A stretch of DNA of 54,194 bases, taken from NCBI GenBank assembly GCA_016188835.1, contig JACPHB010000010.1:1-54194 (forward strand), written 5' to 3'. Position 1 is the first letter of the stretch. Every line of letters starts with the position of its first letter. This DNA comes from Parcubacteria group bacterium. GTDB lineage: Bacteria; Patescibacteriota; Minisyncoccia; UBA10092. The notes under the pieces were generated by a model that ran no database searches, was not told where the DNA came from, and saw only the letters and a list, made by a program, of their open reading frames with translations. This document shows, in pieces, positions 13,627 to 30,156 of this stretch. The translations under genes and the position numbers were made by a program.

Positions 13627-14128
13627 TAAATCTAAATATTTTTATGCTTTTGACGGAAAATATTATCAAAAGTAGAACGGCCGTAAGCACCAGCTCAGCC
13701 ATAATTCCGCTATTTAAAAAATAAAAACTAAATTTTTCTTGTCCTCTTATAAGTATATTATTTATTATCCATGCTAAAAAATGGTAAAAAAACACCGCAA
13801 AAACAGTAATAATTAAAATATTTTCACTTTTTAAAGTTAACAGCACTTTCTTTTGAAGAATAATCAAAAAAGCGGCTGTTAAAAGCAATAATAAGCTGGT
13901 AACCCCAAATACAGAGAAATAAACCGTGTCAATTAAAAAGCCGCCGAACCATCCTAAAAAAATGGCGCTATAAATGTTTTTAGTAAGTATTAGAAGCGAT
14001 ATTAGAACCAAAAAAATATTAAATCCCCAGCGGAATTGATTTAAAAAAGCTATTTGAAAACTGGCTAAAATAATTAAAGCAAAAACGGTAAAAAAAATTA
14101 GAAACATTATTTTGTAGTCATAGCTCAT
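13619..14128 (-). CDS. mreD: Rod shape-determining protein MreD (by position and topology)
   Basis: This 169-aa multi-TM protein sits between mreC and mrdA. Confidence 0.6.
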   Translation of the reverse strand: MSYDYKIMFLIFFTVFALIILASFQIAFLNQFRWGFNIFLVLISLLILTKNIYSAIFLGWFGGFLIDTVYFSVFGVTSLLLLLTAAFLIILQKKVLLTLKSENILIITVFAVFFYHFLAWIINNILIRGQEKFSFYFLNSGIMAELVLTAVLLLIIFSVKSIKIFRFNV

Positions 14129-14154
14129 CTTAAAGATTTGATATTAATTTTTAA

Positions 14155-14943: not shown

Positions 14944-14946
14944 ATA

Positions 14947-15981: not shown

Positions 15982-17215
15982 TTTTTATATTTGATATTTT
16001 AAGCAAATTGATTTTTCCGGTTTTTCTGTTTTTAATTTCAACAGAATTTTTTGATAATGTTTTTTCACTTATTACGAGCCGAGTCGGAATTCCGATTAAA
16101 TCAGCATCGGCAAATTTTTCTCCAGCCGACTTATCGTCGCGGTCATCGTATAACACTTCAATGCCTTTATCAAGACATGTTTTATATATTTTTTCCGCTT
16201 CTTTTTTTACAACCGGATTAGAATTTTTTAGTTCAACCAGGTGAAACTTATATGGCGCCGCGAATTCCGGCCAAATTATTCCATTATCATCATGAAGCGT
16301 CTCAACTATAGCTCCCATTGTCCTCCCCAGCCCAATCCCATATGAACCCATTATTACGGACTCTTTTTTTCCTTTCGAATTTAAAAAATTCAAATTAAAA
16401 GCATCCGAATATTTAGTTCCGAGCGGAAAAATATTGCCGACTTCGATCGCGTTTTCTTTTATGATTTTACCGGCGCATTTGGAGCATTTGCCACCGGCAT
16501 TTAATTTGGAAATTTCCTTATTTTCCGCATAACCGCATTTCAAACAAACAAAAACCACATCCTCTCCCACAGGGCACAGAACATGAAATTCATGGGTATT
16601 TTCGGCGGTATAATCGCCGCCTGCTGCCAATGTGTAAACTGTTTTCAGACCGCATCGCTTAAATATATTGAGATACGTTTTTTTGACTATTTCATAATAA
16701 TTTCTAAAATCGGATTCTGAAGCATGGAAACTGTATAAATCTTTCATTATGAATTCCTTGCCCCGCAATAATCCGGATTTGGCTCTTAGTTCGTTGCGAA
16801 ATTTTGTTTGAATTTGATAGGCGGCCAGAGGTAGATCTTTGTACGAATTTATGTATTTTGATGCAATAGCCGTTAAAACCTCTTCATGAGTCCAACCCAA
16901 AACAAAATTGGCTGATTTTTCTTTTTTCCCGCGCGCCTCAAAACCAATCCCCACATCCCATCTGCTGGTAGCATCTAAATATTTTTTTTCGACAAGCGCC
17001 GGCATAAACATTTCCTGGGCGCTGATGGCGTTCATTTCTTCGCGAATAATATCGGCAATTTTAGAAAGCACCCGCCACCCCAAAGGCAGATATGAATAAA
17101 CTCCAGCGGAGTTTTTATATATAAACCCCCCTCTTTCAAGTAGTTTCGCGTTTACACTTACTTCATCCTTAGGCGCCTCTCTTAAAGTTTTCCCAAAAAT
17201 TTGTGATTGCCGCAT
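15962..17215 (-). CDS. proS: Prolyl-tRNA synthetase, short form without the INS editing domain, with a Cys4 insertion
   Basis: The 417-aa protein has class II motifs and a CLKCGYAENKEISKLNAGGKCSKC insertion. Its 3' end overlaps the mreB start by 20 nt. Confidence 0.9.
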   Translation of the reverse strand: MRQSQIFGKTLREAPKDEVSVNAKLLERGGFIYKNSAGVYSYLPLGWRVLSKIADIIREEMNAISAQEMFMPALVEKKYLDATSRWDVGIGFEARGKKEKSANFVLGWTHEEVLTAIASKYINSYKDLPLAAYQIQTKFRNELRAKSGLLRGKEFIMKDLYSFHASESDFRNYYEIVKKTYLNIFKRCGLKTVYTLAAGGDYTAENTHEFHVLCPVGEDVVFVCLKCGYAENKEISKLNAGGKCSKCAGKIIKENAIEVGNIFPLGTKYSDAFNLNFLNSKGKKESVIMGSYGIGLGRTMGAIVETLHDDNGIIWPEFAAPYKFHLVELKNSNPVVKKEAEKIYKTCLDKGIEVLYDDRDDKSAGEKFADADLIGIPTRLVISEKTLSKNSVEIKNRKTGKINLLKISNIKNDKSFI

Positions 17216-17279
17216 AAAGTTTTAGTTAAAGTTAAATCAAGCTCTTATATTCTACAACAAATATGCCACTCCGAAAACC

Positions 17280-17308
17280 TTGACAATAATAAATAATTGT
17301 TATATACT
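17280..17308 (+). promoter_or_regulatory. Sigma-70-like promoter TTGACA-N17-TATACT
   Basis: Read directly from the sequence. It lies about 50 nt upstream of the small ORF at 17359. Confidence 0.5.
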
Positions 17309-17358
17309 TATTATAATAAAAAAACAAAGTTCATTTTACAACTTATGAGGAGAACGCC

Positions 17359-17517
17359 ATGAAACACAAAACACTGGCAAAAAAACATATTCGACAAACC
17401 CGACTACTACCATCTTGTGATAATATGAGCTATAAAACTCCAAACCTAATTGAGGTCATTGCCCAAGAACTCAAACGAATCCGCGAGATTCTGCAGTATG
17501 GCAAACCACTCTCTTAA
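17359..17517 (+). CDS. Small hypothetical ORF (52 aa), below the ORF-track size cut-off
   Basis: The translation is MKHKTLAKKHIRQTRLLPSCDNMSYKTPNLIEVIAQELKRIREILQYGKPLS. It is preceded by a GAGGAG Shine-Dalgarno sequence about 6 nt upstream and followed by a hairpin plus T-run. Confidence 0.4.
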   Translation: MKHKTLAKKHIRQTRLLPSCDNMSYKTPNLIEVIAQELKRIREILQYGKPLS

Positions 17518-17561
17518 TAGCACAATAATTCAAAGGTTGTAATTTTATCATTTTTATTATA

Positions 17562-17598
17562 ATCTCGGAGTGAAATTATCATCCCGAGATATTTTTTT
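17562..17598 (+). terminator. Rho-independent terminator-like hairpin plus T7 run
   Basis: atctcgg pairs with ccgagat (7-bp stem, 15-nt loop), followed by atttttttac. Confidence 0.5.
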
Positions 17599-17647
17599 AC
17601 TGAATAAAAACCCTATATTCTAAAGTGTAACTTTTAAATCCTTTCTT

Positions 17648-17683
17648 GAACGCACAAAAATCCTATAGGCAGTTTGTGCGTTT
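17648..17683 (-). repeat. Copy A of the palindromic element GAACGCA..TGCCTATAGGA..TGCGTTC (inverted relative to B-D)
   Basis: The sequence is gaacgcacaaaaatcctataggcagtttgtgcgttt, with a 10-bp stem aacgcacaaa/tttgtgcgtt. Confidence 0.85.
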
Positions 17684-17718
17684 ATAGAAAGTATGATAAA
17701 ATATATAAAAACAATTAT

Positions 17719-18297
17719 ATGAAAAATGTAATTAAAAGCGAATCATTAACCGCGGATGTTTTACTTATAGCCGCCGCCGGGCCAATTATTTTAGCATCAT
17801 TATTCTTGCCCAACGCGCCCCTGATGTTAAAATCGTTAATTAAATGGCATAAAAATTGGGGTAAAATAAAGCGCCAGCGAATTTATGAGGCTATCAGGCG
17901 CCTTAATAAAAAAAGATTGATTGAATTAGAGCAAAAGGGTAACGATTTATATCTTAAAATTACCGAAAATGGTAAAAAGATAATAAAAAATTTTGATTAT
18001 GACAATATTGAATTACCCAATCATAAAAAATGGGATAAAAAATGGCGAATGATAATTTTTGATATCCCGGAGAAGAAAAATAAAGAGCGCCGCGCTCTTT
18101 CCGCAAAATTGAAAGATTTGGGTTTCTATCCCCTGCAAGAGAGTGTCTTTATTTATCCTTACGACTGCCAAGATGAAATAGATTTTATTTGCAGTTTCTT
18201 GTCCATTGATAATTATGTTAATTATTGTACTCTTGAAGCTTTGGATAAAAAAGAAGGCGATTTAAGAAAGTTTTTTGATTTATCTCTTAAACTCTAA
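17719..18297 (+). CDS. PaaX-like regulator: wHTH plus a Cas2-fold domain. The start is taken at the ATG at 17719; the track starts at a TTG at 17674.
   Basis: The wHTH-like segment is RQRIYEAIRRLNKKRLIELEQKGNDLYLKITENGKK. It is followed by WDKKWRMIIFDIPEKKNKERRALSAKLKDLGFYPLQESVFIYPYD, which matches the W..W..FDIPe..R..L..GF..Q.SV pattern of PaaX central/Cas2-like domains. Confidence 0.6.
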   Translation: MKNVIKSESLTADVLLIAAAGPIILASLFLPNAPLMLKSLIKWHKNWGKIKRQRIYEAIRRLNKKRLIELEQKGNDLYLKITENGKKIIKNFDYDNIELPNHKKWDKKWRMIIFDIPEKKNKERRALSAKLKDLGFYPLQESVFIYPYDCQDEIDFICSFLSIDNYVNYCTLEALDKKEGDLRKFFDLSLKL

Positions 18298-18301
18298 CTC
18301 T

Positions 18302-18336
18302 GAACGCATTTATTGCCTATAGGATTTTAATGCGTT
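18302..18336 (+). repeat. Copy B of the palindromic element
   Basis: The sequence is gaacgcatttattgcctataggattttaatgcgtt. It starts 5 nt after the stop of the PaaX-like gene. Confidence 0.85.
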
Positions 18337-18437
18337 TTAAAGTTAAAATTATTACATCAATTATGAAAAAATTAACGCATCTTTAATAAATCTCACCGCT
18401 CCGAAACAAACGTTTTCTAATCAATAGTTTGGAAATA

Positions 18438-18467
18438 TTGACAAATAAAACAACTTTGTGTTATTAT
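18438..18467 (+). promoter_or_regulatory. Promoter TTGACA-N18-(TGt)TATTAT
   Basis: Read directly from the sequence. It has an extended -10 TG and lies upstream of ORF 18535. Confidence 0.45.
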
Positions 18468-18495
18468 AAATATTATGATATTGGAACGTTCTTTA

Positions 18496-18517
18496 ATCTA
18501 ACTACAATCTAACTACA
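18496..18517 (+). repeat. Tandem direct repeat 2 x 11 nt (atctaactaca) in the 5' leader
   Basis: Read directly from the sequence. It lies 17 nt upstream of the ATG at 18535. Confidence 0.8.
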
Positions 18518-18534
18518 GAAATGGAGCAAGAGCC

Positions 18535-18897
18535 ATGCAAGCAAATATCATGAACATTTCAGAGCTTCAGAAAATTCAAAAAAAAGCAAAAATAAGCATG
18601 CAAAATATCAAGACCGATGAGGAACAGGAAAGGAAGCAAAAAATTGAAAAAAAGGCCAAATGGTATTTAGAAGGATTTAATGAGACATTAAAGCAAGTAG
18701 CAATTAAGGCAGCTAATGAAGGAAAGAACGAGGCAGTTGTTATGCAAGTTGGGCCATTTTGGGTAGCCGGATGGTTTGATGAAGTCACCAAAAAAGCCGC
18801 TGAAATGGCGGTTGTATATGTTAAAAAGAAATATGACGGTTTTAATTTCTGGCTTGATGATGGTTTTATTTGGGCATCTTGGCCAGAATCTTCATAA
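18535..18897 (+). CDS. Hypothetical protein (120 aa)
   Basis: The ORF has a GGAG Shine-Dalgarno sequence (atggagcaagagccATG), its own promoter and a downstream hairpin. No motif is recognised. Confidence 0.55.
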   Translation: MQANIMNISELQKIQKKAKISMQNIKTDEEQERKQKIEKKAKWYLEGFNETLKQVAIKAANEGKNEAVVMQVGPFWVAGWFDEVTKKAAEMAVVYVKKKYDGFNFWLDDGFIWASWPESS

Positions 18898-18915
18898 TTT
18901 TAGAATATATTTGCG

Positions 18916-18950
18916 TCCCTACCGAAATATTGGTGGGGATTTAATTTTAC
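18916..18950 (+). terminator. Hairpin plus T-rich tail
   Basis: tccctacc pairs with ggtgggga (8 bp with one G-U, 8-nt loop), followed by tttaatttta. Confidence 0.45.
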
Positions 18951-18983
18951 ACTAGCTCAAAATCTAAAAATAAGGTCTGCCTT

Positions 18984-19021
18984 GGACACAAAGATTACCT
19001 ATAGGAGATTTTTGCGTTCAG
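18984..19021 (+). repeat. Copy C (degenerate left arm) of the palindromic element
   Basis: The sequence is ggacacaaagattacctataggagatttttgcgttcag. Confidence 0.7.
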
Positions 19022-19126
19022 TAAATTTACGATTAATAAATCTTTGTTATTATCTTTCGTAAATCAGCAACGATCGTTGGAATATTACGAAAAATAAAAA
19101 TACGAAAATGAAAAATTAGAAAATTC

Positions 19127-19154
19127 TAATAATTTAGCTATAGCTAAATTATTA
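19127..19154. terminator. Perfect 14+14 AT-rich palindrome downstream of rseP
   Basis: The sequence is taataatttagcta-tagctaaattatta, lying 39 nt after the rseP stop. Confidence 0.4.
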
Positions 19155-19192
19155 TACAGTTGATTTAACCTCAACTGGTTGAACCTCAATAG

Positions 19193-20245
19193 TTATAGAA
19201 GTTTTAAGATATCTCTGTAGGTTATCAATGCAACGAGTACCAAGAGCAAGACGATGCCAACAGAATGAATGGCGTTTTCAATCTTGGGGTTGACTTTTGA
19301 GCCCTTGATTTTTTCTATAGCTAAAAATAACAGCCGACCGCCGTCTAAAGCAGGAAAAGGAATTAAATTTAAAACCGCGAGATTAAGAGAAATCAAAGCC
19401 ACTAATTGAAGCAGATAAACAAAACCGAGAGCTGTCGCCTGGCCGGCCAATACCGCAATTCCCACCGGACCGGCAACCTCCTGAGGCACTTTTCCGGAAA
19501 CCAGAAGATTTTTAATTAACCCAAAAAATCCCTTAATTATTTCCCAAGTTATAATAAACGACGATTTTATCCCAAGCCAAACGCTTTGATACCATGGATA
19601 AGAAACAAGGCCGGTTTTAGCAAGAGCTATGCCTAAAGCTCCTTCTCCTTCCGGAGGACTTACTCTAGGGACGGTTTTAATTTCTAAATTGCCTTGACCT
19701 CTTTTAATTTTTAAATTTATTTCTTGGCCCTTGTTTTTACTGATGAAATCCTGAAAAATTAAAATTTCGGAAAAATTTTCTATAGAATCGCCGAGTTTTA
19801 AACCGGCTTTTTCTGCCGGAGAATTATGGTTGATGGCAATAATTTGAATTTGAACATTTTTAGCGAGTGTTTCATTTTCTTCGCTTACAACTTGCGGCAA
19901 GCCGATATAAAATCCGATGATTAAGAGCATGGCGCCGAGTGCGAAATTCATCATAACTCCAGCCGCGGTGATTAAACTTCTAATAACAATGGATTTTGAA
20001 GAAAAACTTTTAGAATTATTAGTTTCGCTGCCGTCTTCGCCTAATATTTTAACAAAGCCGCCCAAGGGCAAAAGATTTATTGAATAAATTGTTTCGCCGG
20101 ATTTCCAGCTAAAAATTCTTGGCGGAAAGCCAAAACCGAATTCTTCCACAGTTAAGCCGCTTTTTTTGGCAACAATAAAATGGCCAAATTCGTGAACCAA
20201 AACTAAAATTCCCAAAATTAAAATAAAAACCAAAATGGTAATCAT
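19193..20245 (-). CDS. rseP: RIP metalloprotease RseP (site-2 protease, M50)
   Basis: It has HEFGHF, a PDZ-like middle region and NLIPFPALDGGRL. Confidence 0.9.
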   Translation of the reverse strand: MITILVFILILGILVLVHEFGHFIVAKKSGLTVEEFGFGFPPRIFSWKSGETIYSINLLPLGGFVKILGEDGSETNNSKSFSSKSIVIRSLITAAGVMMNFALGAMLLIIGFYIGLPQVVSEENETLAKNVQIQIIAINHNSPAEKAGLKLGDSIENFSEILIFQDFISKNKGQEINLKIKRGQGNLEIKTVPRVSPPEGEGALGIALAKTGLVSYPWYQSVWLGIKSSFIITWEIIKGFFGLIKNLLVSGKVPQEVAGPVGIAVLAGQATALGFVYLLQLVALISLNLAVLNLIPFPALDGGRLLFLAIEKIKGSKVNPKIENAIHSVGIVLLLVLVALITYRDILKLL

Positions 20246-20793
20246 CCGTTTTTAATTTCTTCTTCTTTTAACTTCAATAAATTTTCCAAATTATTATTTG
20301 TTAAGTCAATTAATTTTTGGATCCCTTCTTTTATTTTAAATTTTTCATCTTCGGTAATTTTTTTGGAGTCAAACAGCTCATTAACTTCTTTTATCATTTT
20401 ATCTCTGCTATTGCGATATTTGATTTTAGCTTCTTCCGATTTAGAACCTATAACTTTTATTAGCGCCACTCTTCGTTCTTCGGTTAATGACGGAATATTT
20501 ATCCTGATTAAATTTTTATCAACAATGGGATTTAAATTTAAGTCGGAAGTTAAAATAGCTTTTTCCAGATTAGGCAAAACGGTTCTATCCCATGGCTCAA
20601 TTATTAAAATTCTTGGTTCCGGAGCGGAAATGGAAGCCAGTTGTTTTATGGGAATTTTGGAACCATAGCAATCAACCAATATGTTTTCAACGAGAGCCGG
20701 GGTGGCGCGGCCAACGCGCAAAGAAGAAAACTCGGTTTTTAACGATTCTTCTATTTTTTTTAATTCATTTTTAAAATTTTCTAAAATTTCCAT
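20242..20793 (-). CDS. frr: Ribosome recycling factor
   Basis: The 183-aa protein contains LRVGRATPALVENILVDCYG. Confidence 0.95.
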   Translation of the reverse strand: MEILENFKNELKKIEESLKTEFSSLRVGRATPALVENILVDCYGSKIPIKQLASISAPEPRILIIEPWDRTVLPNLEKAILTSDLNLNPIVDKNLIRINIPSLTEERRVALIKVIGSKSEEAKIKYRNSRDKMIKEVNELFDSKKITEDEKFKIKEGIQKLIDLTNNNLENLLKLKEEEIKNG

Positions 20794-20805
20794 GAAGGTT
20801 TATAA

Positions 20806-20902
20806 GCCAATAAAACAAATTTTTTTAAAATTCCTTAGCCCCATTCGCCTTCGGCGAACGGCTCGCCCCCGCCTAGAATTTTAAAAAATTTGTTTTATTG
20901 GC
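20806..20902 (+). repeat. Long hairpin element, copy 1: a 27/28-bp AT-rich stem around a conserved GC-rich core
   Basis: The arms are gccaataaaacaaatttttttaaaattc and gaattttaaaaaatttgttttattggc. The core is cttagccccattcgccttcggcgaacggctcgcccccgccta. The right arm encodes the last 9 codons of holB. Confidence 0.9.
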
Positions 20903-21670
20903 ATCACAGTTAAAACTTAATAATAATTCATCATAAGCAAACTTCGGATTAATATTTGTTTCATTTAATTTAAAATAAATATTTTGGCTTGTTTTTAATA
21001 AATTGTTTAATTTTTGATTCGGGCTAAATAAGAATTTGGCTCTTAAAAATATGATCCAAAATTTGAAAATTTCAATTGCCGAGTAATCGCTAAATTTTTC
21101 AATAATAGAATATCGGTCTTTTGATTCATTGCTAAAAATTTCGTTAAAAATTTCTATAATTTTTTTATCTGTTTCTATATCAACGCCGTCTTGTCGCCAA
21201 AATGGCAATTTTATGCCGCGAGAAGCAATAGTTTCCGGAATTCCGTCAATAGTTTTAACGTTTAGTATAATAATGGCATGATTCGGTGCCTCTTCAAAAA
21301 TTTTGAGCAAGGCGTTTTGAGCGTAAATATTTAATTTTTCCGCCGCATCTATTACCGCTATTTTATATTTTCCGTAATAAGGACTTAAAATTAGAAATTT
21401 TTTAAGCTGCCTGATTAAATTTATAGACCGCTCTTCATCAGTATCGGCTGAAATTAAAATTAAATCCGGATTAAAACCCCGACGCTGTAAAGTCGGGGCT
21501 CCGACCGAAGCATCGGAGCTAAAATCAGGATTAAGAATTTTATTAGCGAATTTTAAAGCAATCGTTTTTTTAGCCAACTCATCCGGTCCATAAAAAATAT
21601 AAGCATGAGACAAACCATTGTTTTCAATGCATTTGTTAAGATAATCGGTAATTTTCTGATAATTATTCAT
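20873..21670 (-). CDS. holB: DNA polymerase III delta-prime-like clamp-loader subunit (divergent)
   Basis: The N-terminus NGLSHAYIFYGPDELAKKTIALKFANKILN and the length fit delta-prime. The Walker A motif is degenerate. Confidence 0.65.
   Translation of the reverse strand: MNNYQKITDYLNKCIENNGLSHAYIFYGPDELAKKTIALKFANKILNPDFSSDASVGAPTLQRRGFNPDLILISADTDEERSINLIRQLKKFLILSPYYGKYKIAVIDAAEKLNIYAQNALLKIFEEAPNHAIIILNVKTIDGIPETIASRGIKLPFWRQDGVDIETDKKIIEIFNEIFSNESKDRYSIIEKFSDYSAIEIFKFWIIFLRAKFLFSPNQKLNNLLKTSQNIYFKLNETNINPKFAYDELLLSFNCDANKTNFLKF
21477..21518. repeat. Tandem GC-rich hairpins inside holB
   Basis: The two hairpins are ccccgac-gctgtaaa-gtcgggg and ctccga-ccgaagca-tcggag. They encode SSDASVGAPTLQRRGF on the coding strand. 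Confidence 0.85.
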
Positions 21671-21674
21671 TTTA

Positions 21675-22688
21675 TTAGCGACGCGCCATAATGCTTCTTT
21701 TATAAAATTCCAGATTTTCTAAAACCAAACCAGCGCCCTTGGCGACGCAAAATAACGGTTCTTCGGCGACATATGCCGGAACTCCGGTGGCTTTTACCAT
21801 TAGTTCGTCAAAATTCCTAAGTAACGCCGTGCCGCCGGATAAAATTATTCCTTTATCCATTATATCGGCAGATAATTCCGGAGGAGTTTGGGCTAAGACC
21901 AGTTTAACGGCTTGAATAATTTCTTTAAGTCGCTCGGAAATTGCTTCCACGACTTCATTGGTGCCAATGTTAATATTCCGCGGCAAACCGGTTACTATAT
22001 CGCGGCCTCGAACGCCTATGTGAAGTTCATCTTTCAAAGGCAGTGCTGAGCCAACTTCAATTTTTATTCTTTCGGCAGTTCTTTCTCCAATGGCTAAATT
22101 ATGGCGGCGTTTAAGGTAATCAATAATCGCCTGGTCCAATTTATTGCCGCCTACCCTTCTTGAATGAGAAGTTACAATGCCGCCTAAAGAAATAACCGCC
22201 ACTTCGGTGGTGCCGCCGCCAACCGACATAATTAAATTTCCGGAAGCCGAATTAATTGGGATATTGGCTCCAATAGCGGCTAAAACCGGCTCTTTAACAA
22301 TATAGGCGGCTCTGGCGCCGGCATTTACAGCCGCGTCAATAACAGCCCTTCTTTCGGTTGAACTGGAACCGGATGGCACGGTTACTAAAACTTCCGGTTT
22401 TATTAACTGGAATCTGCCCAAGCTTTTACCAATAAAATACCTGAGCATGGCTTCGGTAATTTTATAATCGGCAATAACGCCATCGCGCATTGGTTTTTTG
22501 GCGATTATATTTTCCGGAGTGCGGCCGATCATTGTTTGTGCCTCAATACCAATGGCCAAAACGGCATTATTATCCGGAGAAATTGCCACCACAGTGGGCT
22601 CATTCAAAGTAATCCCGCGACCGGGAATAAATACAAGAGTATTAACAGTGCCGAGATCAATTCCGATTTTTTTAGTAAAGATTGCCAT
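21675..22688 (-). CDS. Second MreB/Mbl-type actin homologue
   Basis: The motifs DLGTVNTLVF, SVGGGTTEVAVISLGG and LSGGTALLRNF are present. It is clearly paralogous to 14947..15981. Confidence 0.9.
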   Translation of the reverse strand: MAIFTKKIGIDLGTVNTLVFIPGRGITLNEPTVVAISPDNNAVLAIGIEAQTMIGRTPENIIAKKPMRDGVIADYKITEAMLRYFIGKSLGRFQLIKPEVLVTVPSGSSSTERRAVIDAAVNAGARAAYIVKEPVLAAIGANIPINSASGNLIMSVGGGTTEVAVISLGGIVTSHSRRVGGNKLDQAIIDYLKRRHNLAIGERTAERIKIEVGSALPLKDELHIGVRGRDIVTGLPRNINIGTNEVVEAISERLKEIIQAVKLVLAQTPPELSADIMDKGIILSGGTALLRNFDELMVKATGVPAYVAEEPLFCVAKGAGLVLENLEFYKRSIMARR

Positions 22689-22693
22689 GTTTT

Positions 22694-22792
22694 AAAAAAT
22701 GAAAATAAAATTTTAAAATTGTCATAGCCCCACCCCGCTTCGCGGGGCGGCACGACCCCGCCTACAATTTTAAAATTTCATTTTCATTTTTT
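22694..22792 (+). repeat. Long hairpin element, copy 2
   Basis: The arms are aaaaaatgaaaataaaattttaaaattgt and acaattttaaaatttcattttcatttttt (29 bp, 1 mismatch). The core is catagccccaccccgcttcgcggggcggcacgaccccgcct. Confidence 0.9.
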
Positions 22793-22799
22793 ATATTAA

Positions 22800-24065
22800 T
22801 TAATTTTTAATTCTCTTTATATCTGCTCCTAGTGCTTGTAAACGTTCATCTATTTTTTCATATCCCCTATCAATTTGGTAAATATTTTCTACAACGCTTT
22901 GGCCTTCCGCTAAAAGCGCCGCGATAATTAATGCCATTCCGGCGCGAATGTCTGGGCTGTTAATTTTTTTACCGCGCAGCTTACTGGGACCTTGAACAAT
23001 AACCCGATGCGGATCAGCCATAATAATATTCGCACCCATCTGATTTAAGATATCGGTATAAAATAACCGGCCCTCATAAATTGTTTCGTGAACCAATGAA
23101 ATGCCGTTCGCCTGCGTCAACAAAACAGTAAGCGGCGCTTGAAGGTCTGTAGCAAAACCAGGATATTCGCGTGTCTTAACATCGATAGTTCGAAGATTTC
23201 TAACGGGCTTTACTATAACATAATCAGCGCCAATTTCAAGATCGGCTCCCGCTTTTTCAAGTAATGAGAGTAATACTTCCAAATGTTCCGGGTGGCAATT
23301 TTTTATTTTAATATTGCTTTTGCTCGCAATCGCCAAAATTATAAAAGTTCCCGATTCAATTCTATCGGGAAAACCGTTCCAAGCGCCGCCATTAAGTTCT
23401 TTTGCGCCAACAATTTCAATTGACGGCGTGCCAGCTCCGGAAATTTTAGCGCCCAAAGAATTTAAAAAAATGGCTAAATTTTCTATTTCCGGTTCGCAAG
23501 CGGCATTTTTTAAAATTGTTTTTCCTTGAGCCAGTACTGCCGCCATCATTAAATTCTCGGTTCCGGTTACGCTTACTATTGGAAAAACAAATTTATTGCC
23601 TATAAGTTTTTTGGAAGCGACTGTAAAAATATCTCCCCTCTTTTTAACCTTTGCCCCCAAAGCTTCAAAACCGTCAATAAAAAAATCAATCGGCCGTTTG
23701 CCCAAAGTGCAGCCGCCAGGATGAGGAAACGAAACTTTGCCGTATCTAGCTAAAATTGGTCCAGTCAAAACAATTGACGCCCTGAACCGATCGGCGATTT
23801 TATAATTTAAATCAGTTTTTTTTATTCCTGAAGAATTTATAAAATTGCCTGAAAACTTAGCGCCCAAATCAATAAGAAGTTCTTTCATTCTGTCAACGTC
23901 TTCTATCTTCGGCATTTTCGGCAATTTTACCGGTTTGTCGGTTAAAATTGATGCGGCTAAAATTTTTAAAGCCGCGTTTTTAGCGATACCAACAGTGATT
24001 TCGCCTTCTAATTTTTTCCCGCCGTTTATAACAAAATATTCCGCCATGATGTGAATATTATACAA
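22800..24065 (-). CDS. murA: UDP-N-acetylglucosamine 1-carboxyvinyltransferase. An alternative start is Met7 at 24047.
   Basis: The 421-aa protein is typical MurA throughout (FPHPGGCTLGKRPID, PGFATDLQAP). Confidence 0.95.
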   Translation of the reverse strand: MYNIHIMAEYFVINGGKKLEGEITVGIAKNAALKILAASILTDKPVKLPKMPKIEDVDRMKELLIDLGAKFSGNFINSSGIKKTDLNYKIADRFRASIVLTGPILARYGKVSFPHPGGCTLGKRPIDFFIDGFEALGAKVKKRGDIFTVASKKLIGNKFVFPIVSVTGTENLMMAAVLAQGKTILKNAACEPEIENLAIFLNSLGAKISGAGTPSIEIVGAKELNGGAWNGFPDRIESGTFIILAIASKSNIKIKNCHPEHLEVLLSLLEKAGADLEIGADYVIVKPVRNLRTIDVKTREYPGFATDLQAPLTVLLTQANGISLVHETIYEGRLFYTDILNQMGANIIMADPHRVIVQGPSKLRGKKINSPDIRAGMALIIAALLAEGQSVVENIYQIDRGYEKIDERLQALGADIKRIKN

Positions 24066-24124
24066 TAAATTTATTATTGACTCAAATTGCGCAATTTTTT
24101 AAAACGTGTTATGGTAACTGTCTT

Positions 24125-25066
24125 ATGACAATAAGATTCAGACGTTTTGTTTTTTGGATTTTTGTTATTCTATTTATCGCCGCGAGCATTACCATTACCC
24201 TTTTTGCCCAAGGATGGCGTTTTGATTTTGATTCTTTTAAAATGGTTAGAACCGGCGGTATTTTTGTTAAAACCACGGTTTCCGGCGCTAAAATATATAT
24301 AAATGATAAATTTACCGGAACAACAGCGGGCATTTTAAATTACACAAAATTAGTCGACGATCTTGCCCCCAAAAATTATAATCTTTTTATTCACAAAGAA
24401 GGATATTACCCATGGAACAAAATGGTTGAAGTAAAAAATGGCCTGGTAACCAAATTAATTTCTGTAACTTTATTTCCTTTGGAACTTAAAAAAATTAAAA
24501 TGGCGCAATTACCGGCGCAAAAAATAGCAGATTTTGAAGTTAACGATAAAACAATTAGGATAATAGATAATAAAAAAATAGGAACCGCTAAAATTTATGA
24601 TTTTGATGGGCAATTTATATCAAACGAAAAATTTAAAATTTCAACTTCCACAGAATTAATATCTCCCGATAAAAATAAAAAGCTTTATGCCGTAGATAAT
24701 AAAATTTGGATTGAGTATTTAAATGACATAAAAGAAGAGCCGTCTAAAAAAGCGGGGGAAAAAGAAATAATCGCTACGTCGGAATCGCCAATTTTATTTT
24801 TAGATTGGCTTAAAGATTCCGAGCACATTATCTGGCTTACTAACGGCGAATTAACAATTGCCGAAAGGGATAATCGAGGCGGTAAGCGGAACAGCGTTAA
24901 ATTTTATTTAAACATCAATCCGCCAATTTTTTGGGACATTAAAAATTTCGATCTCTATTTCTTTGAAACTGATAAATCCCGACGCCTTGACGGAACGTCA
25001 ACGGTCGGGATCCCGACCGAAGCATCGGGAGAAAAAATTATCTTATATAAAATAAATGTAGAATAA
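24125..25066 (+). CDS. Membrane-anchored PEGA-domain protein. The ATG at 24125 is preferred over the TTG at 24077.
   Basis: It has an N-terminal TM (FVFWIFVILFIAASITITLF) followed by a PEGA-like segment (GGIFVKTTVSGAKIYINDKFTG...NLFIHKEGYYPW). Confidence 0.65.
   Translation: MTIRFRRFVFWIFVILFIAASITITLFAQGWRFDFDSFKMVRTGGIFVKTTVSGAKIYINDKFTGTTAGILNYTKLVDDLAPKNYNLFIHKEGYYPWNKMVEVKNGLVTKLISVTLFPLELKKIKMAQLPAQKIADFEVNDKTIRIIDNKKIGTAKIYDFDGQFISNEKFKISTSTELISPDKNKKLYAVDNKIWIEYLNDIKEEPSKKAGEKEIIATSESPILFLDWLKDSEHIIWLTNGELTIAERDNRGGKRNSVKFYLNINPPIFWDIKNFDLYFFETDKSRRLDGTSTVGIPTEASGEKIILYKINVE
24977..25030. repeat. Tandem GC-rich hairpins inside the PEGA gene (same family as 21477..21518)
   Basis: The two hairpins are tcccgac-[gccttgacggaacgtcaacg]-gtcggga and tcccga-ccgaagca-tcggga. 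They encode SRRLDGTSTVGIPTEASG. Confidence 0.85.
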
Positions 25067-25078
25067 CAATTATTCCAC

Positions 25079-25098
25079 TTTCAGACGATCGTCTGAAA
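25079..25098. terminator. 20-nt perfect palindrome between convergent genes
   Basis: The sequence is tttcagacga-tcgtctgaaa. Confidence 0.45.
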
Positions 25099-25113
25099 CT
25101 CGTATAATTAAAA

Positions 25114-25158
25114 ACGGCACGTGGGAGAAGATCGCTGATGCGATTTCCCACGTGCCGT
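25114..25158 (-). terminator. GC-rich rho-independent terminator of the SPFH gene
   Basis: acggcacgtggga pairs with tcccacgtgccgt (13-bp perfect stem). On the minus strand it is followed by TTTTTAATTAT. Confidence 0.7.
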
Positions 25159-25186
25159 ATTGCCGATTGAACTGCTCTTTGGCCGG

Positions 25187-26056
25187 CTACTTGGTAGGCT
25201 TGCCCGAAGCGTCGAATGTTCCGACGAGAGGCACCCCGTTGTTGCCCACAGGGATATAGATCGTCGTGTGATTCGGCGACCCCACCATCTTCTCTTGCGC
25301 CGCGATCGCCTCGTGCTGGAGGTACTGGGGAGTGAGGCGCTGGTTGATGATCTCCATCGCCTTAGCAACACCCTCAGCGTCCTTGATTCGTTTCTCCGCG
25401 TCTCGCCCGGCGATCTGGATTTCGGTCGCCTTCTGCTCGAGAAGCTGAGTCGTTGCCATCTTCTTGGCCACGGCATTCGCCACTTCATCTGGGTATTGGA
25501 TATCGCCGACGACCACACTCATGATGTCGAACGGGGTGTTGTTGACCCAGATCTTCATTGTCTTCTCGATGGCATGGCCGATCTGAACAATCCGCTCTTT
25601 GAGAGCCAACGCATCCAGCGCCTGCACTTCATCACGAGTCGCCGTTCGCAATGGCTCCTTCAAAAAGTTACCGTAGGCGACTTCGACGACCTTGTTCGGG
25701 TTCTTGTCGTCGCCCCTTTCGAGCGTCGTGTACTTCTCGACGAACAACTTCACTTGCTCGTGTTCAGGCTTCACCCGCCAGACGATGTGCACCTGGAAAG
25801 ACACCTTGAGGTTGTCCTTCGAGAGAACGGTCATCGGCTCATGGTAGGTGTATGGCGTCACGCTGATGTTGTGAGCGTCGAGCAGCCATCCGAGCCCCGT
25901 CGATGTCGGCCCCGTCTGCATGTTGTAGAACCGATCATGACCGAACCAGGCGCCCTGCGTGACGTACCCGACGTAACCAGCAGGGGTTGAAGGGTTCGAG
26001 CAGCCGACGAGACCGAACGAACCAATGACGAGAGCGAGAAAAATAATCCTTTTCAT
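25187..26056 (-). CDS. SPFH/Band-7 (prohibitin/stomatin-like) lipoprotein; compositionally foreign
   Basis: It has a signal peptide plus lipobox (MKRIIFLALVIGSFGLVGC). The Band-7-like core carries a C-terminal Ala/Glu-rich helix (ATTQLLEQKATEIQIAGRDAEKRIKDAEG). GC is about 52-67% on hand-counted lines, against 23-40% in the flanks. Confidence 0.8.
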   Translation of the reverse strand: MKRIIFLALVIGSFGLVGCSNPSTPAGYVGYVTQGAWFGHDRFYNMQTGPTSTGLGWLLDAHNISVTPYTYHEPMTVLSKDNLKVSFQVHIVWRVKPEHEQVKLFVEKYTTLERGDDKNPNKVVEVAYGNFLKEPLRTATRDEVQALDALALKERIVQIGHAIEKTMKIWVNNTPFDIMSVVVGDIQYPDEVANAVAKKMATTQLLEQKATEIQIAGRDAEKRIKDAEGVAKAMEIINQRLTPQYLQHEAIAAQEKMVGSPNHTTIYIPVGNNGVPLVGTFDASGKPTK

Positions 26057-26155
26057 CTTGCGCCTCCTTTAGGCGTTTTTTCTCTTGTTTTTGGCATCAC
26101 TCAGCAAATACCTCACAATGAGATACCGCTTGATGCCAAGGAACTACTGTTGTTT

Positions 26156-26185
26156 ATTATAACACGTGTATAATTATAACGTCAA
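26156..26185 (-). promoter_or_regulatory. Promoter TTGACG-N18-(TGt)TATAAT for the SPFH gene
   Basis: Read on the minus strand. It is followed by a structured leader of about 90 nt and an AAGGAGG Shine-Dalgarno sequence. Confidence 0.55.
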
Positions 26186-26198
26186 TAGATGAAATATT

Positions 26199-26618
26199 TT
26201 ATCGCTTCGACCACTGAGGAGCGCGGCGGGCGCCTTTGAGGCCGGGTTTCTTTCTTTCTTTCATTCTTGGGTCGCGGGTTAAAAAGCCAAATGTTTTTAA
26301 GTTTGTTTTAGATTCAGGATGCGCCAAAACAAGGGCTCGGCTTAATCCGTGGCGCAAAGCATAGGCCTGAGCTCTAAGTCCGCCGCCAAAAACTTTAACG
26401 GAAACTTTGTAATTTTTAATCCCGCTTTTAACAATCGGATCCATTAACGTGTCCTGCATTTCTCTCCCCGGAAAGTAATCGGAATAATTTTTATTATTCA
26501 CAATTACCTCTTGCTTAATGTCGTTTGGCCAAAGCCGAATTCTGGCTATTGCCGTTTTTCTTCTGCCGACGGCCTCGTAATATTTATTGATTTTTGTAGT
26601 TTTGGTTTTTAGTGCCAT
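26199..26618 (-). CDS. rpsI: 30S ribosomal protein S9
   Basis: It contains GGGLRAQAYALRHGLSRAL and ends in the canonical ...RAPQWSKR. Confidence 0.95.
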   Translation of the reverse strand: MALKTKTTKINKYYEAVGRRKTAIARIRLWPNDIKQEVIVNNKNYSDYFPGREMQDTLMDPIVKSGIKNYKVSVKVFGGGLRAQAYALRHGLSRALVLAHPESKTNLKTFGFLTRDPRMKERKKPGLKGARRAPQWSKR

Positions 26619-26619
26619 A

Positions 26620-26973
26620 TCATTTGATGATTAACCGTTTCATTAATTTAGCTCGCAATCGGCTTTTATTAAGCATTCTTAAAACAGCCAACTTTAAAGC
26701 TCGACCCTTATCTTTTTTTATTAAATCGGCATATTTTACGGTTTTCAAGCCGCCGGGATAACCCGTGTGGTGCCGGTATATTTTTTGGACTGATTTTTTA
26801 CCGGTTAGCAATATTTTATCTATGCCGGATACCCTAACAGTTATCATAGGATCTGAATGAGGAAAATAATTTACCTCCCTTTTTCCCCTTAAGAGAGTTG
26901 CAATTTCACTTGCTAACCTGCCCAAAGATTTCCCCGCTGCATCAATGTTATAAATTTTCGGTTTATTTGCCAT
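26620..26973 (-). CDS. rplM: 50S ribosomal protein L13 (short, 117 aa)
   Basis: It contains DAAGKSLGRLASEIATLLRGK and lies upstream of rpsI, as is usual. Confidence 0.9.
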   Translation of the reverse strand: MANKPKIYNIDAAGKSLGRLASEIATLLRGKREVNYFPHSDPMITVRVSGIDKILLTGKKSVQKIYRHHTGYPGGLKTVKYADLIKKDKGRALKLAVLRMLNKSRLRAKLMKRLIIK

Positions 26974-26974
26974 A

Positions 26975-27325
26975 TTATTTCACAAGTTCAATTATTACCA
27001 TTTTTGCGCCATCATTTTTTCTAATTTCCAGTTTCATTATCCGACAATAACCGCCGCTTCGCTCTTTAAAGCGCGGCGACAAATCTTTAAATAATTTATT
27101 CACTGGCTTTAAATTTAATTTTTTAAGCAATAAACGCCGGTTTGCCAAATTATCAACTTTTGCCTTAGTAATTGCTTTTTCGATCATGGGCCTAATTTCT
27201 TTAGCTCTGGCCTCGGTAGTTCTGATGCGCTCTTTTAAAATAAGATTGCTTATTAGATTCCATAAAAAAGCTTTTCTGAAATCTGCCGATCTTCCAAATT
27301 TTCGATTTTTTCTTAAATGTTTCAT
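26975..27325 (-). CDS. rplQ: 50S ribosomal protein L17
   Basis: It contains MKHLRKNRKFGRSADFRKA...TTEARAKEIRP. Confidence 0.95.
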   Translation of the reverse strand: MKHLRKNRKFGRSADFRKAFLWNLISNLILKERIRTTEARAKEIRPMIEKAITKAKVDNLANRRLLLKKLNLKPVNKLFKDLSPRFKERSGGYCRIMKLEIRKNDGAKMVIIELVK

Positions 27326-27333
27326 AGCGTTTC

Positions 27334-28302
27334 CTACTCCTCTGATTTTAACGTAAAGCCAAGTTTACCAAGCGCTTTTTTTATTTCTTTTACCGCTTTA
27401 TTGCCTAAACCTTCCAATTGCAATAAATCTTTTTCTTTTAAACGTAAAAGTCCGGCAATAGTTTTTATGCGATTTTCTAAAAGAATATTTTGGGTACGAT
27501 TTGAAAGTTTAAGATCTTCTATTTTACTTTTTGTTATATCCTCTTCTTCTTTTTCTTTTTCAATTAATTCTTCCTTGGTTTCTTTTTTGTATTCGGTTTT
27601 CATAATTTTACTTGCCGCGGTGGTAAAAACCTGAAACTGTTCAATCAAAATTTGAGCAGCGTTTATAAGCGCTTCAGTAGGAGTTATTGTACCGTCAGTT
27701 TCAATATCAAACTTCAATTTGTTATAGTTGGTTTTATCACCGACGCGCATATCTGTAGTGTCATAATTAATCATTTTAATGGGCGTAAAAATAGCATCAA
27801 CCGCGATACTGCCAATTTCTTGTTTATCCTTTTTGCGAGTTTCCCATTCAGAATAACCAAGTCCTCTTTCAACCTGCATTTCTATTTCTAAAGAAGCGTT
27901 TTTAGAAGTAAGCGTGGCAATTAAAGTGTCAGGATTCGCAATTTCAATTTGTGACGTTAATTTTATATCACCCGCTTTAATCTCTTTTTCACCTTTTGCT
28001 TTTAAAGTTATAATTTGCGGCTCATCATTATAAATTTTAAATCTTATTTGTTTTAAATTTAAAATTATCTCAACAATATCTTCTAAAACGCCTGGGATAG
28101 TGGAAAATTCATGATTAACATCTTTTATTTTTACAAATGTTATGGCGGCTCCGGGAAGAGATGATAACATTACGCGGCGCAAAGCATTGCCCAAAGTTAG
28201 ACCGTATCCGGGATAAAGTTCTTCTATTTCGAAAACAGCCCTGTTTTTAGAAATTTGTTCTATTAATTTTGGCGTCTTTGGCAAAGAAATGTTTGTGTTC
28301 AT
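27334..28302 (-). CDS. rpoA: DNA-directed RNA polymerase subunit alpha
   Basis: It has N-terminal domain motifs (PGYGLTLGNALRRVMLSSLPGAA) and a C-terminal domain (LSNRTQNILLENRIKTIAGL). Confidence 0.95.
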   Translation of the reverse strand: MNTNISLPKTPKLIEQISKNRAVFEIEELYPGYGLTLGNALRRVMLSSLPGAAITFVKIKDVNHEFSTIPGVLEDIVEIILNLKQIRFKIYNDEPQIITLKAKGEKEIKAGDIKLTSQIEIANPDTLIATLTSKNASLEIEMQVERGLGYSEWETRKKDKQEIGSIAVDAIFTPIKMINYDTTDMRVGDKTNYNKLKFDIETDGTITPTEALINAAQILIEQFQVFTTAASKIMKTEYKKETKEELIEKEKEEEDITKSKIEDLKLSNRTQNILLENRIKTIAGLLRLKEKDLLQLEGLGNKAVKEIKKALGKLGFTLKSEE

Positions 28303-28352
28303 AATTTTAAATATTTAAAAAATTTTTAATTTATTTTTAATACCAATTTTCA

Positions 28353-28979
28353 CTATCTGGAATAAAAAGCGACAATTGAATTCATGTTAAAATTTTTTGG
28401 CAAATCATTATCTTCTGGATTACTTTTTATTTCTATTTCTAAATTTTTTTTATCAATTGAGAGCCAAGAAGGCGCCACGTGTTTTTTTAATTTATTAATT
28501 AAATCAAAAAATATCTGCTTTTGCCGGCTTTTCGGTTTTATGCTGATTATATCGCCGATTTCAACCCGATGCGACGGAATGGCGACTCTTTTATTATTGA
28601 CCAAAAAATGACCATGATTTACCACCTGCCGCGAAATACTTCTTGAGCTCACAAAACCGCTTCTGTAAATTGCATTATCCAAACGCCGTTCCAATATGCT
28701 AAGCACCAGATTACCGGTAATACCTTTGCGCTGTTTTGCTTCATTAAAACACTTATTTAACTGCTTTTCGCTTATGCCATAAGTAAATTTTATTTTTTGT
28801 TTTTCTAAAAGCTGCGCTCCAAATTCGGATAAAGCCCGCCGGCGAGCTTTCCCATGCTGACCCGGCCGATAAGGTTTTTTTAAAAAAGATGATTTTGGCG
28901 AAAAAGACCTCTCGGCTTTAAGTCCGAGATTTTCTCCCACCTTTCTTGATAATTTTTCTTTTGGTCCAGTATATCTCAT
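28353..28979 (-). CDS. rpsD: 30S ribosomal protein S4
   Basis: It contains MRYTGPKEKLSRKVGENL and an S4 RNA-binding domain. Confidence 0.95.
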   Translation of the reverse strand: MRYTGPKEKLSRKVGENLGLKAERSFSPKSSFLKKPYRPGQHGKARRRALSEFGAQLLEKQKIKFTYGISEKQLNKCFNEAKQRKGITGNLVLSILERRLDNAIYRSGFVSSRSISRQVVNHGHFLVNNKRVAIPSHRVEIGDIISIKPKSRQKQIFFDLINKLKKHVAPSWLSIDKKNLEIEIKSNPEDNDLPKNFNMNSIVAFYSR

Positions 28980-29428
28980 ACTCTTCTCACTTTTTTAGGC
29001 CTGGGGCCATTATGCGGAATCGGAGTTATATCTTTTATGGATATTACATTTAATCCGTGGCTGGCAAGAGCTCTTATGGCCGACTCCCGTCCAGAACCGA
29101 TGCCTTTTACAAAAATTTCAATTTCTAAAAATCCGGTTTTTTTAATTTTTTCTAAAACCGCTTCTGTTACTTTGGCCGCTGCATAGGGCGTGGCTTTTTT
29201 AGGACCATTAAAACCAAGCGCTCCGGCTGAAGACCAAGCTAAAACCCCGCCTTTTTCATCGGTAACTGTAATCGCAGTATTATTATAACTGGCTTGTATA
29301 TAAATTTTTCCCCTGGCAATCTGTCGACCGGTTTTACCGCTAAAAACATTTGCTTGCTCAATTCCTAATTTTTCGCTTTCCTTAAGGAGCTCTGCTTCAG
29401 TTTGTTTTTTTATTTTCTTTTTTCCCAT
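28976..29428 (-). CDS. rpsK: 30S ribosomal protein S11
   Basis: It contains NNTAITVTDEKGGVLAWSSAG...ITPIPHNGPRPKKVRR. Confidence 0.95.
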   Translation of the reverse strand: MGKKKIKKQTEAELLKESEKLGIEQANVFSGKTGRQIARGKIYIQASYNNTAITVTDEKGGVLAWSSAGALGFNGPKKATPYAAAKVTEAVLEKIKKTGFLEIEIFVKGIGSGRESAIRALASHGLNVISIKDITPIPHNGPRPKKVRRV

Positions 29429-29429
29429 A

Positions 29430-29819
29430 TTATGTTTTCTCCGCTGATTTTTTACGGCCGGAACCGACTGTTTTTCTCACATTGCCTCTTCTGGTTCTGG
29501 AATTTGTCTTAGTTCTTTGCCCCCTTACCGGCAATCCTCTGAAATGACGATAACCTTTATAGGCATTGATTTCTTTCAATCTTTTAATATTGCCTTGGAT
29601 TATTCTTTTTAAATCTCCTTCTATTTTATAATTTTTTTCCACAAAATCTTTTAAGCGCGTTAATTCTTCATTGGTTAAGTCTTTAGCTCTTTTATTAGAA
29701 TCAATTTTAATGTGTTCTATAATTTTAGCCGCCGAGGGTCGGCCGATACCATAAACATACGCCAGTGAAGCGATTATTTTTTTATTGTCCGGAATATTTG
29801 TTCCTGAGATTCTTGGCAT
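29430..29819 (-). CDS. rpsM: 30S ribosomal protein S13
   Basis: It contains MPRISGTNIPDNKKIIASLAYVYGIG. Confidence 0.95.
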   Translation of the reverse strand: MPRISGTNIPDNKKIIASLAYVYGIGRPSAAKIIEHIKIDSNKRAKDLTNEELTRLKDFVEKNYKIEGDLKRIIQGNIKRLKEINAYKGYRHFRGLPVRGQRTKTNSRTRRGNVRKTVGSGRKKSAEKT

Positions 29820-29824
29820 GTTTT

Positions 29825-29938
29825 TTAACCCTGTCTTTGTTTATGTTTTGGGTTTGAACAAACAATATAAAGACGCCTTTGGCGGCGGATAATTTTACAT
29901 TTAGCACAAATTTTTTTAACGCTTGCACGTACTTTCAT
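29825..29938 (-). CDS. rpmJ: 50S ribosomal protein L36 (37 aa), not in the ORF track
   Basis: My own translation is [37 protein letters not shown]. The ATGA overlaps the infA stop. Confidence 0.9.
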
Positions 29939-30156
29939 AATCGTCTTATTATTCGGCCCCGCCTCTTATCAGAAGATAATTCAACTTCCACACGATCACC
30001 GACCAAAACACGAATAAAATTTAACCGCATTTTACCTGATAAATGAGCTAAAATTTCCGTGCCATCTTCTAATTTAACTCTAAAAGTTGTATTTGGTAAG
30101 GCCTCTGTAACAGACCCTATAAGTATTAATCTTTTATTATCTATCATAAGAAACAT
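29935..30156 (-). CDS. infA: Translation initiation factor IF-1
   Basis: It has the S1-like fold signature [31 protein letters not shown]. Confidence 0.95.

Follow-up and report, generated by a model that had tools for sequence, protein, structure and literature searches.

A family of palindromic DNA repeats, probably mobile, with a strand-asymmetric GC-rich core in Patescibacteria

We analysed a 54,194-bp stretch of DNA from a Parcubacteria group bacterium (contig JACPHB010000010.1, assembly GCA_016188835.1), which is referred to as the window below. The window contains housekeeping genes, namely those for aminoacyl-tRNA synthetases and ribosomal proteins, rpoA, mreBCD/PBP2, murA, frr, holB, secDF, and the genes for ribonucleotide reductase, and no transposase was found in its gene content. 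It is an ordinary chromosome stretch of a small AT-rich bacterium. The hairpin studied here, copy 2, is a palindromic unit of 101 bp on the minus strand (22693-22793) located between the murA stop (22800) and the start of an mreB paralog (22688). It begins 6 nt past the murA stop, and its other end is 4 nt short of the mreB-paralog start. Its AT-rich arms, which are 30 nt each and 97% complementary with a spacing of 41 nt, comprise the left arm, a terminal inverted repeat of the GAAAATAAAATTTTAAAATTG subfamily (22693-22722), and the right arm (22764-22793). The sole mismatch, due to the C at 22778, is A.C on the plus strand and G.U/T on the minus strand. The arms enclose an asymmetric minus-strand core of 41 nt (catagccccaccccgcttcgcggggcggcacgaccccgcct, 22723-22763), of which the G+C content is 78%; that of the window is ~38%. 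The core is composed of a junction CA, TAGCCCCA (22725-22732), an apical mini-hairpin (22733-22747, minus strand), and CGGCACGACCCCGCCT (22748-22763). The mini-hairpin reads CCCCGC-TTC-GCGGGG on the plus strand. On the minus strand it reads CCCCGC-GAA-GCGGGG with a C(GAA)G triloop, and is lengthened there by CCG/UGG with a G.U(T) pair. We propose that the G-rich minus strand of copy 2 is the strand that folds.

The window contains two sister copies, copy 1 (20806-20902, minus strand) between frr and holB and copy 3 (43465-43564, plus strand) between a gene for an uncharacterised protein of 415 aa and a TrwB/HerA-like ATPase gene. A covariance model run on the window detected exactly these three copies at 83-92 bits (92.4, 83.5, and 87.8 bits for copies 1, 2, and 3, respectively), and everything else scored 18 bits or less. 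The folding z-scores of the three copies were -7.5 to -10.9 with RNA and DNA parameters, and no shuffled sequence folded as well. Each occupies nearly the whole gap between two codirectional genes on the minus strand. They have TAGCCCCA, the 15-nt mini-hairpin, and CGGCnCGnCCCCnCCTA in common. TAGCCCCA occurs four times in the window versus 0.98 expected, and the fourth occurrence, at 46763, is without arms. The core of copy 3 is reversed, with the G-rich strand on the plus strand and the host genes on the minus strand, and the predicted transcripts would contain copies 1 and 2 as the G-rich strand but copy 3 as the C-rich strand. When re-derived from the window sequence, the arms, the single mismatch, and the core of copy 2 were as given in the preliminary description, which had also stated that the apical stem is replaced between copies. 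This is indeed the case: copies 1 and 3 share the stem TTCGCC/GGCGAA, copy 2 has CCCCGC/GCGGGG, and each stem is complementary. The loop TTC of copies 1 and 2 is TAC in copy 3. The basal AT-rich stem had been described as replaced as well. The arms do differ between the copies and represent diverged arm subfamilies, but the inner 8-10 nt of the three copies are similar (TTTAAAATT[C/G]). The TAG stop of holB (20873-20875, minus strand) is the conserved CTA at the core boundary of copy 1. Since the holB frame crosses the copy 1 arm to the TAG at the core edge, the repeat supplies C-terminal codons and the stop of this gene.

Inverted repeats of other types were also observed in the window. Inside a PMT_2 glycosyltransferase-like ORF (2648-4231), two perfectly complementary inverted arms of 19 nt are separated by a 3-nt spacer (TGACATCCGATGTCGATAG / CTATCGACATCGGATGTCA, 3114-3154). 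A 23-nt palindrome of A and T only (7250-7296), which is 96% complementary with a 1-nt spacer and is without a GC-rich core, is located at the 5' end of an ftsQ-like ORF (6551-7339, minus strand), just downstream of an alanine racemase gene. The start of efp (38521-39129, plus strand) lies within an imperfect inverted repeat of 50 nt (38457-38567, 72% complementary) that contains many ATGTTA/TAACAT-like words.

Copies of the repeat were gathered by pattern scans and the covariance model from one genome per species (185,579 representatives) and from metagenomes. We obtained ~105 distinct copies, all of which originate from Patescibacteria MAGs or metagenomes, mostly of groundwater. Among the species representatives, the strict pattern detected armed copies in only ~8 Patescibacteria MAGs, including Paceibacterota, Azambacteria, Nomurabacteria, and two labelled Saccharibacteria, and the remaining hits were armless chance matches in GC-rich genomes. 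The metagenome scan yielded 109 further loci, again mostly from groundwater. The copy number is patchy, with ~17 copies in ~240 kb of one Saccharibacteria-labelled MAG and a single copy in others, and the density is ~1 per 14-18 kb. The units are 95-105 bp long, with arms of 19-32 nt (mode 27) that contain 0-3 mismatches, and 103 of the 105 copies combine an A-rich 5' arm with a T-rich 3' arm. In each unit the AT-rich arms enclose a strand-asymmetric GC-rich core consisting of TAGCCCCA, a variable mini-hairpin, and CGGCnCGnCCCCnCCTA. The core is highly uniform, as a search of 622 kb of flanking DNA with the covariance model added only one copy to the strict-pattern set.

The Rfam search proposed in the preliminary description gave no family for the hairpin: a scan of the whole window against release 15 at the gathering threshold matched three tRNAs only, and a permissive scan of 22650-22840 returned sub-threshold noise, the best match being a plant miRNA model at 24.8 bits with a cut-off of 83 bits. 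Neither scan thus matched a known RNA family. No match to the repeat was found in viral contigs, phage records, or plasmid records, and a phage, plasmid, or viral origin was rejected on the basis of these three collections. Targeted full-text searching of the literature found no description of the repeat. The TIGR arrays of CPR bacteria, which were considered as an earlier description, are tandem arrays and hence different. The best-supported reading is that this is a previously undescribed repeat of ~100 bases scattered in the tiny genomes of some Patescibacteria (CPR bacteria).

Three loci whose flanks are unrelated (L021, L164, and L072) share a 94-bp unit, from GAGAAG to CTTCTC, at 95-97% identity. 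The identity extends over the arms, and an A.C mismatch is common to all of these copies. Because the 94-bp match includes the arms, they are the terminal inverted repeats of the mobile unit. Arm subfamilies can be distinguished, within which the inner 12-22 nt are shared. Locus L125 is syntenic with 8388-23872 of the window at 71-78% identity. Copy 1 is absent from this locus and copy 2 is present at 99/101 identity, with flanks that are 80-85% identical. At many orthologous sites, one genome has a copy and a related genome has none. The empty sites at L140, L141, and L078/L144 retain element fragments or have the appearance of a deletion between short direct repeats, which means that loss is directly visible at these sites, whereas insertion is not. 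In 11 of the 47 orthologous pairs, the two copies have opposite orientations with respect to the flanking genes.

Direct-repeat scores between outer arms and flanks did not differ from permuted controls in 84 copies, the three young copies at L021, L164, and L072 are not flanked by a duplication, and no target motif was detected. We rejected the possibility that a small core had been inserted into pre-existing palindromes, as the empty orthologous sites are without a palindrome and armed units recur at unrelated loci. The comparison of L071 with L144 had raised the possibility that the outer arms arise from a target duplication and an inverted target copy, which is without statistical support over the 84 copies. 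This pair is better read as a deletion between short direct repeats in L078/L144 than as an insertion, most of the orthologs being filled. A phmmer search with E. coli RayT, a weak single-sequence search, gave no hit at E<=10 among 3781 ORF segments from the loci and the window (fragments of ~1.1 Mb in total). Neither a transposase nor another candidate enzyme emerged from these genome fragments.

Several features near the copies were also recorded. HolB, of which the 3' end of the gene lies at 20873-20902, has 265 aa in the window and 238 aa in L125, and copies 1 and 2 bracket holB and mreB. Repeat pairs 0.5-0.8 kb apart flank single short genes at L094 (5648-5743 and 6238-6303) and L004 (2583-2680 and 3427-3522). 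The region 17225-19192 of the window is absent from the syntenic L125. It contains a gene for a 207-aa winged-helix and PaaX_M/Cas2-like protein (17674-18297, plus strand) and an ORF of 120 aa without a match in Pfam. Repeats of ~25 nt (AAATCCTATAGGCA..TGCGTT) were found at 17660-17684, inverted at 18303-18330, and in a third related form near 18998-19020. Relatives of the PaaX/Cas2-like gene occur at 11 loci in 9 gene contexts, 1-5 kb from the nearest hairpin repeat. This gene had the most diverse contexts, but the distance of 1-5 kb does not amount to tight linkage, and a linkage of this gene to the repeat was rejected.

In an orientation-aware count by gap, 55 copies were found in codirectional, 21 in convergent, and 1 in divergent gaps. 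Compared with the baseline of the same loci, convergent gaps were two-fold enriched (15 of 62 copies; baseline 11.2%) and divergent gaps were depleted (2 of 62; baseline 11.4%). The median distance from stop to start was 114 nt in gaps with a copy versus 24 nt in codirectional gaps without one. REP-type repeats and terminators are known to be distributed in this manner. Among the codirectional gaps, the mRNA carries the G-rich strand in 31 and the C-rich strand in 24. That copies can face either way with respect to host transcription speaks against a strand-specific motif acting in cis in the mRNA. By the criterion for intrinsic terminators (a GC stem with a T-run within 0-2 nt), the elements were not among the terminator-like sites of 15000-34999. 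The GC-rich hairpin is 10-22 nt away from the T-rich arm; the T-rich 3' arm is nevertheless terminator-like. Canonical intrinsic-terminator-like sites themselves were not enriched in 15000-34999 (28 versus 21.9 +/- 5.1 in shuffles), and the genome may make little use of classical terminators.

Covariation was scored on a model-based alignment of 23 pairs (1588 cells), with 500 shuffles and slid registers as controls. It was revealed that 97.8% of the cells are paired and that both sides have changed in 17 of the 23 pairs, whereas none of the 500 shuffles reached the observed value and no slid register was comparable. This covariation does not, however, show selection on a folded RNA, since complementarity on both strands is inherent in any DNA palindrome. 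One-sided (wobble) changes accounted for only 2 of the 1588 cells, swaps between A-T and T-A and between G-C and C-G were common, and wobble pairs were nearly absent from the inner helices. The scarcity of wobbles together with the frequent swaps fits the copying of one arm of a DNA palindrome from the other, and not an RNA helix drifting via G.U pairs. Mutation by template switching at quasipalindromes is well established (PMC7202029). At L045, L071, and L079, which are orthologous copies, the conserved C-terminus of the protein upstream (..A-V/T/I-I-L-K-I/F-stop) is encoded within one arm, and the substitutions in this coding arm are mirrored in the non-coding one. In orthologous copies with flanks of 90-95% identity, the arms can be 100% identical and the whole apical hairpin replaced (for example, AATTTGC..GCAAATT versus CCCCGCC..GGCTGGG). 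This exchange is cassette-like and presumably reflects gene conversion between copies rather than stepwise compensation. A possible pairing of the bulge at the 5' junction (TCG) with CGA in the 3' segment holds in only 63% of the cells.

The preliminary description had taken conserved loops with compensatory stem changes as the signature of selection on a fold. The complementarity is indeed overwhelming, but selection on RNA is unsupported, given the rarity of wobbles and the cassette swaps. In the best-supported reading, the "compensatory" stem changes reflect the upkeep of a DNA palindrome, and a structured RNA is not demonstrated. Of the two identities offered there, a structured RNA motif or a protein-bound DNA hairpin family, the latter fits best for this dispersed palindrome, with putative binding of a protein.

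Four mutually independent features indicate the G-rich strand as the one that would fold, whatever the direction of the host gene. First, among the orthologous groups with transition mismatches in the arms, these are G.T(U) on the G-rich strand in 22 and on the C-rich strand in 2 (p=3.6e-5), or 18 versus 2 when counted by distinct sequence context, and this bias is present both where the mRNA carries the G-rich strand (12 to 1) and where it carries the C-rich strand (8 to 1). Second, the apical loops on the G-rich strand are GNA triloops in 80 of the 105 copies (GAA in 67, GCA in 9, and GTA in 4), closed by 5'-C..G-3'. Third, a recurrent 2x2 internal-loop variant gives tandem G.A on the G-rich strand and T/C mismatches on the other. 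Fourth, the hairpin extension by CCG/UGG with its G.U(T) pair forms on the G-rich strand only, an A-T pair replacing it in one copy. A stem of 27-30 bp is predicted on both strands, and the G-rich strand gave the more stable fold in all three window copies with RNA and DNA parameters. The G-rich strand opens with GTAG in ~60% and with CTAG in ~37% of the copies, ~11 nt ahead of the hairpin, and the unpaired core segments are conserved across copies. Stable RNA hairpins are usually capped by tetraloops. The d(C-GNA-G) triloop is a classic, extraordinarily stable DNA mini-hairpin (PMC3201870, PMC13037366). The C(GNA)G triloops would thus favour single-stranded DNA over RNA. Single-stranded DNA is probably the relevant form, since the strand bias is independent of the direction of host transcription and the gaps are too small for a promoter of the repeat's own.

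We consider it probable that the hairpin is a copy of a non-autonomous mobile palindromic DNA repeat of the MITE/REP-like kind, confined as sampled to Patescibacteria. From the sequences we infer a mechanism of mobility in which the active form would be a hairpin of the G-rich single strand, most likely of single-stranded DNA exposed in replication or transposition. The conserved unpaired G-rich segments on the stable C(GNA)G mini-hairpin would be recognised by a putative enzyme that acts in trans and whose gene lies elsewhere in the genome. The complementarity of the arms would be maintained by copying at the DNA level, through quasipalindrome template switching and gene conversion, and not by selection at the RNA level. 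The imperfections of the arms are of the kind that self-folding of the G-rich strand can accommodate, in either direction of host transcription. Read-through transcripts would also form long hairpins, with a possible secondary effect on mRNA 3' ends.

Two observations would also fit other explanations. The conservation of copy 2 at 99/101 relative to L125, with flanks at 80-85%, could be due to purifying selection on a function in the host rather than to homogenisation or selfish persistence. The preference for gene 3' ends, the polarity of the arms, and the lack of terminator enrichment would also fit a bidirectional terminator or an mRNA-end element. The main rival is a host-selected RNA element in read-through mRNA, acting as a bidirectional terminator, a block to 3' exonucleases, or an RNase III site that uncouples cistrons. 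Correia, ERIC, and REP repeats have been reported to act as such mRNA elements. This explanation would account for the enrichment in convergent and depletion in divergent gaps, for the A-rich 5' and T-rich 3' arms, which resemble those of bidirectional terminators, for the filling of the stop-to-start gap, for the lack of enrichment of canonical terminators in the window, and for the retention of copy 2. It does not account for the asymmetry of the wobbles, which tracks the orientation of the core and favours the G-rich strand 8 to 1 even where the mRNA is C-rich, nor for the conserved non-palindromic core, which termination does not need. Furthermore, the inner helices are almost without wobble pairs, triloops outnumber the tetraloops usual in stable RNA hairpins, the canonical terminator pattern is not matched, and the distribution is patchy, with copies that come and go between close relatives. 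On balance we regard such an RNA element as rather unlikely to be the primary explanation. It would be compatible with a mobile repeat, as REP and Correia elements show, and the two explanations are not mutually exclusive.

The repeat might instead be a DNA-level site of the host that is not selfish, such as a site for a chromosomal protein (gyrase or a nucleoid protein, as in BIMEs), a site of lagging-strand priming, or a DNA-uptake signal. The conservation of the core over several Patescibacteria lineages, the mini-hairpin of the single-stranded DNA type, and the independence of orientation from gene direction are in accordance with such a role. However, strict matches are present in only ~8 of the 185,579 species representatives with widely different copy numbers, near-identical units at unrelated loci represent recent spread, and a density of ~1 per 14-18 kb is far sparser than that of known uptake sequences. 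A host site of this type is quite improbable. An independent small-RNA gene, in which the G-rich strand would be transcribed from every copy and processed to a ~100-nt hairpin whose loop segments bind a target or protein, is less probable still. It would agree with the four features that favour folding of the G-rich strand in any context and with the conserved unpaired segments, but the copies are only 4-20 nt from the neighbouring ORFs, a distance too short to accommodate a promoter, and different copies have unrelated flanks. A promoter within the palindromic arm would exist on each strand and would yield a transcript without the 5' arm; moreover, the repeat has no Rfam match and its substitution pattern is that of a DNA palindrome. 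A chance palindrome or assembly artefact, suggested by nothing except the AT-rich, low-complexity arms, is already refuted by the folding z-scores, by the ~105 distinct copies from independent assemblies and sites, and by the complementarity, which shuffles never match (0/500), and the preliminary description was right to claim a real family.

We compared the presumed mobile repeat with known systems. REP/REPIN elements are GTAG-tagged palindromes mobilised by RAYT tyrosine transposases in E. coli and Pseudomonas (PMC3733652, PMC3337134). The Patescibacteria repeat resembles them in being extragenic and multi-copy, in its location at gene 3' ends in codirectional or convergent and rarely divergent gaps, in a GC-rich hairpin of which the single-stranded fold is what matters, in the (G/C)TAG at the 5' edge of the G-rich core, and in the lack of target duplication. 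The differences are in size (95-105 bp with long AT-rich arms, in contrast to GC-rich REP palindromes of 20-40 nt), in arrangement (single copies, in contrast to the frequent inverted doublets of REP), and in the tag. In the present repeat, ~11 nt separate the TAG from the foot of the hairpin, and the TAG is paired with a CTA on the 3' side, whereas the GTAG/CGTC tag of REP is directly 5' of the stem. As in MITEs, a small non-coding unit with terminal inverted repeats (modal length 27 nt) is dispersed as a unit, but no target-site duplication flanks it, and no parent element was found in the genome fragments.

Correia/NEMIS of Neisseria and ERIC of enterobacteria are bacterial MITEs that have long terminal inverted repeats and form ~100-nt hairpins. 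They are of ~100-150 bp with terminal inverted repeats of ~26 bp, intergenic, co-transcribed with their neighbours, and present or absent between strains, and they supply stop codons or extend ORFs, in all of which the present repeat is similar. There is, however, no sequence similarity, no target duplication was seen in the Patescibacteria repeat, and its strand-asymmetric centre is the most conserved part while the outer arms vary yet remain complementary. The GC clusters of yeast mitochondria are short GC-rich palindromic mobile elements in AT-rich spacers, some classes of which are flanked by TAG. They provide an analogy only, as GC-rich mobile palindromes in a small AT-rich genome; they belong to other organisms, differ in sequence, and are without 27-bp AT-rich inverted arms. 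Integron attC sites and parvovirus terminal hairpins are single-stranded DNA hairpins with strand selectivity or flip/flop. The likeness, which implies no membership, lies in a function in one folded DNA strand, a free stem sequence, and an asymmetric centre in both orientations. Unlike attC, which conserves the outer R''/R' boxes (RYYYAAC ... GTTRRRY) and varies in the centre, the present repeat conserves the centre and varies outside; attC sites occur in cassette arrays, whereas its neighbours are housekeeping genes, and parvoviral hairpins are genome termini. The repeat thus behaves like REP/REPIN and long-TIR MITEs, yet lacks defining features of each, and it is not an attC site, a canonical terminator, or a member of an Rfam family.

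The distinctive features of the Patescibacteria repeat are a conserved strand-asymmetric centre with freer yet complementary arms, an exchangeable apical mini-hairpin, flipped orthologous copies, and a clean strand-specific wobble signature. More speculatively, and with considerable doubt, the repeats might be substrates of an unrecognised CPR recombination or transposition system acting on single-stranded DNA hairpins. Such a system would read the G-rich segments on the C(GNA)G mini-hairpin atop a ~27-bp stem, move the palindrome without target duplication, flip it in place, and swap the mini-hairpin cassette.

These results also provide a caution for the discovery of non-coding RNA: a DNA palindrome repeat yields perfect "covariation with conserved loops" without evidence of an RNA function, and tests of wobbles and strand asymmetry can separate a DNA palindrome from a structured RNA. 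Patescibacteria have very small, streamlined genomes with few recognised mobile elements, and the repeat offers a handle on the dynamics of these genomes. It is abundant, fills intergenic gaps, remodels the 3' ends of genes, and turns over among close relatives, and it may point to an undiscovered hairpin-specific enzyme.
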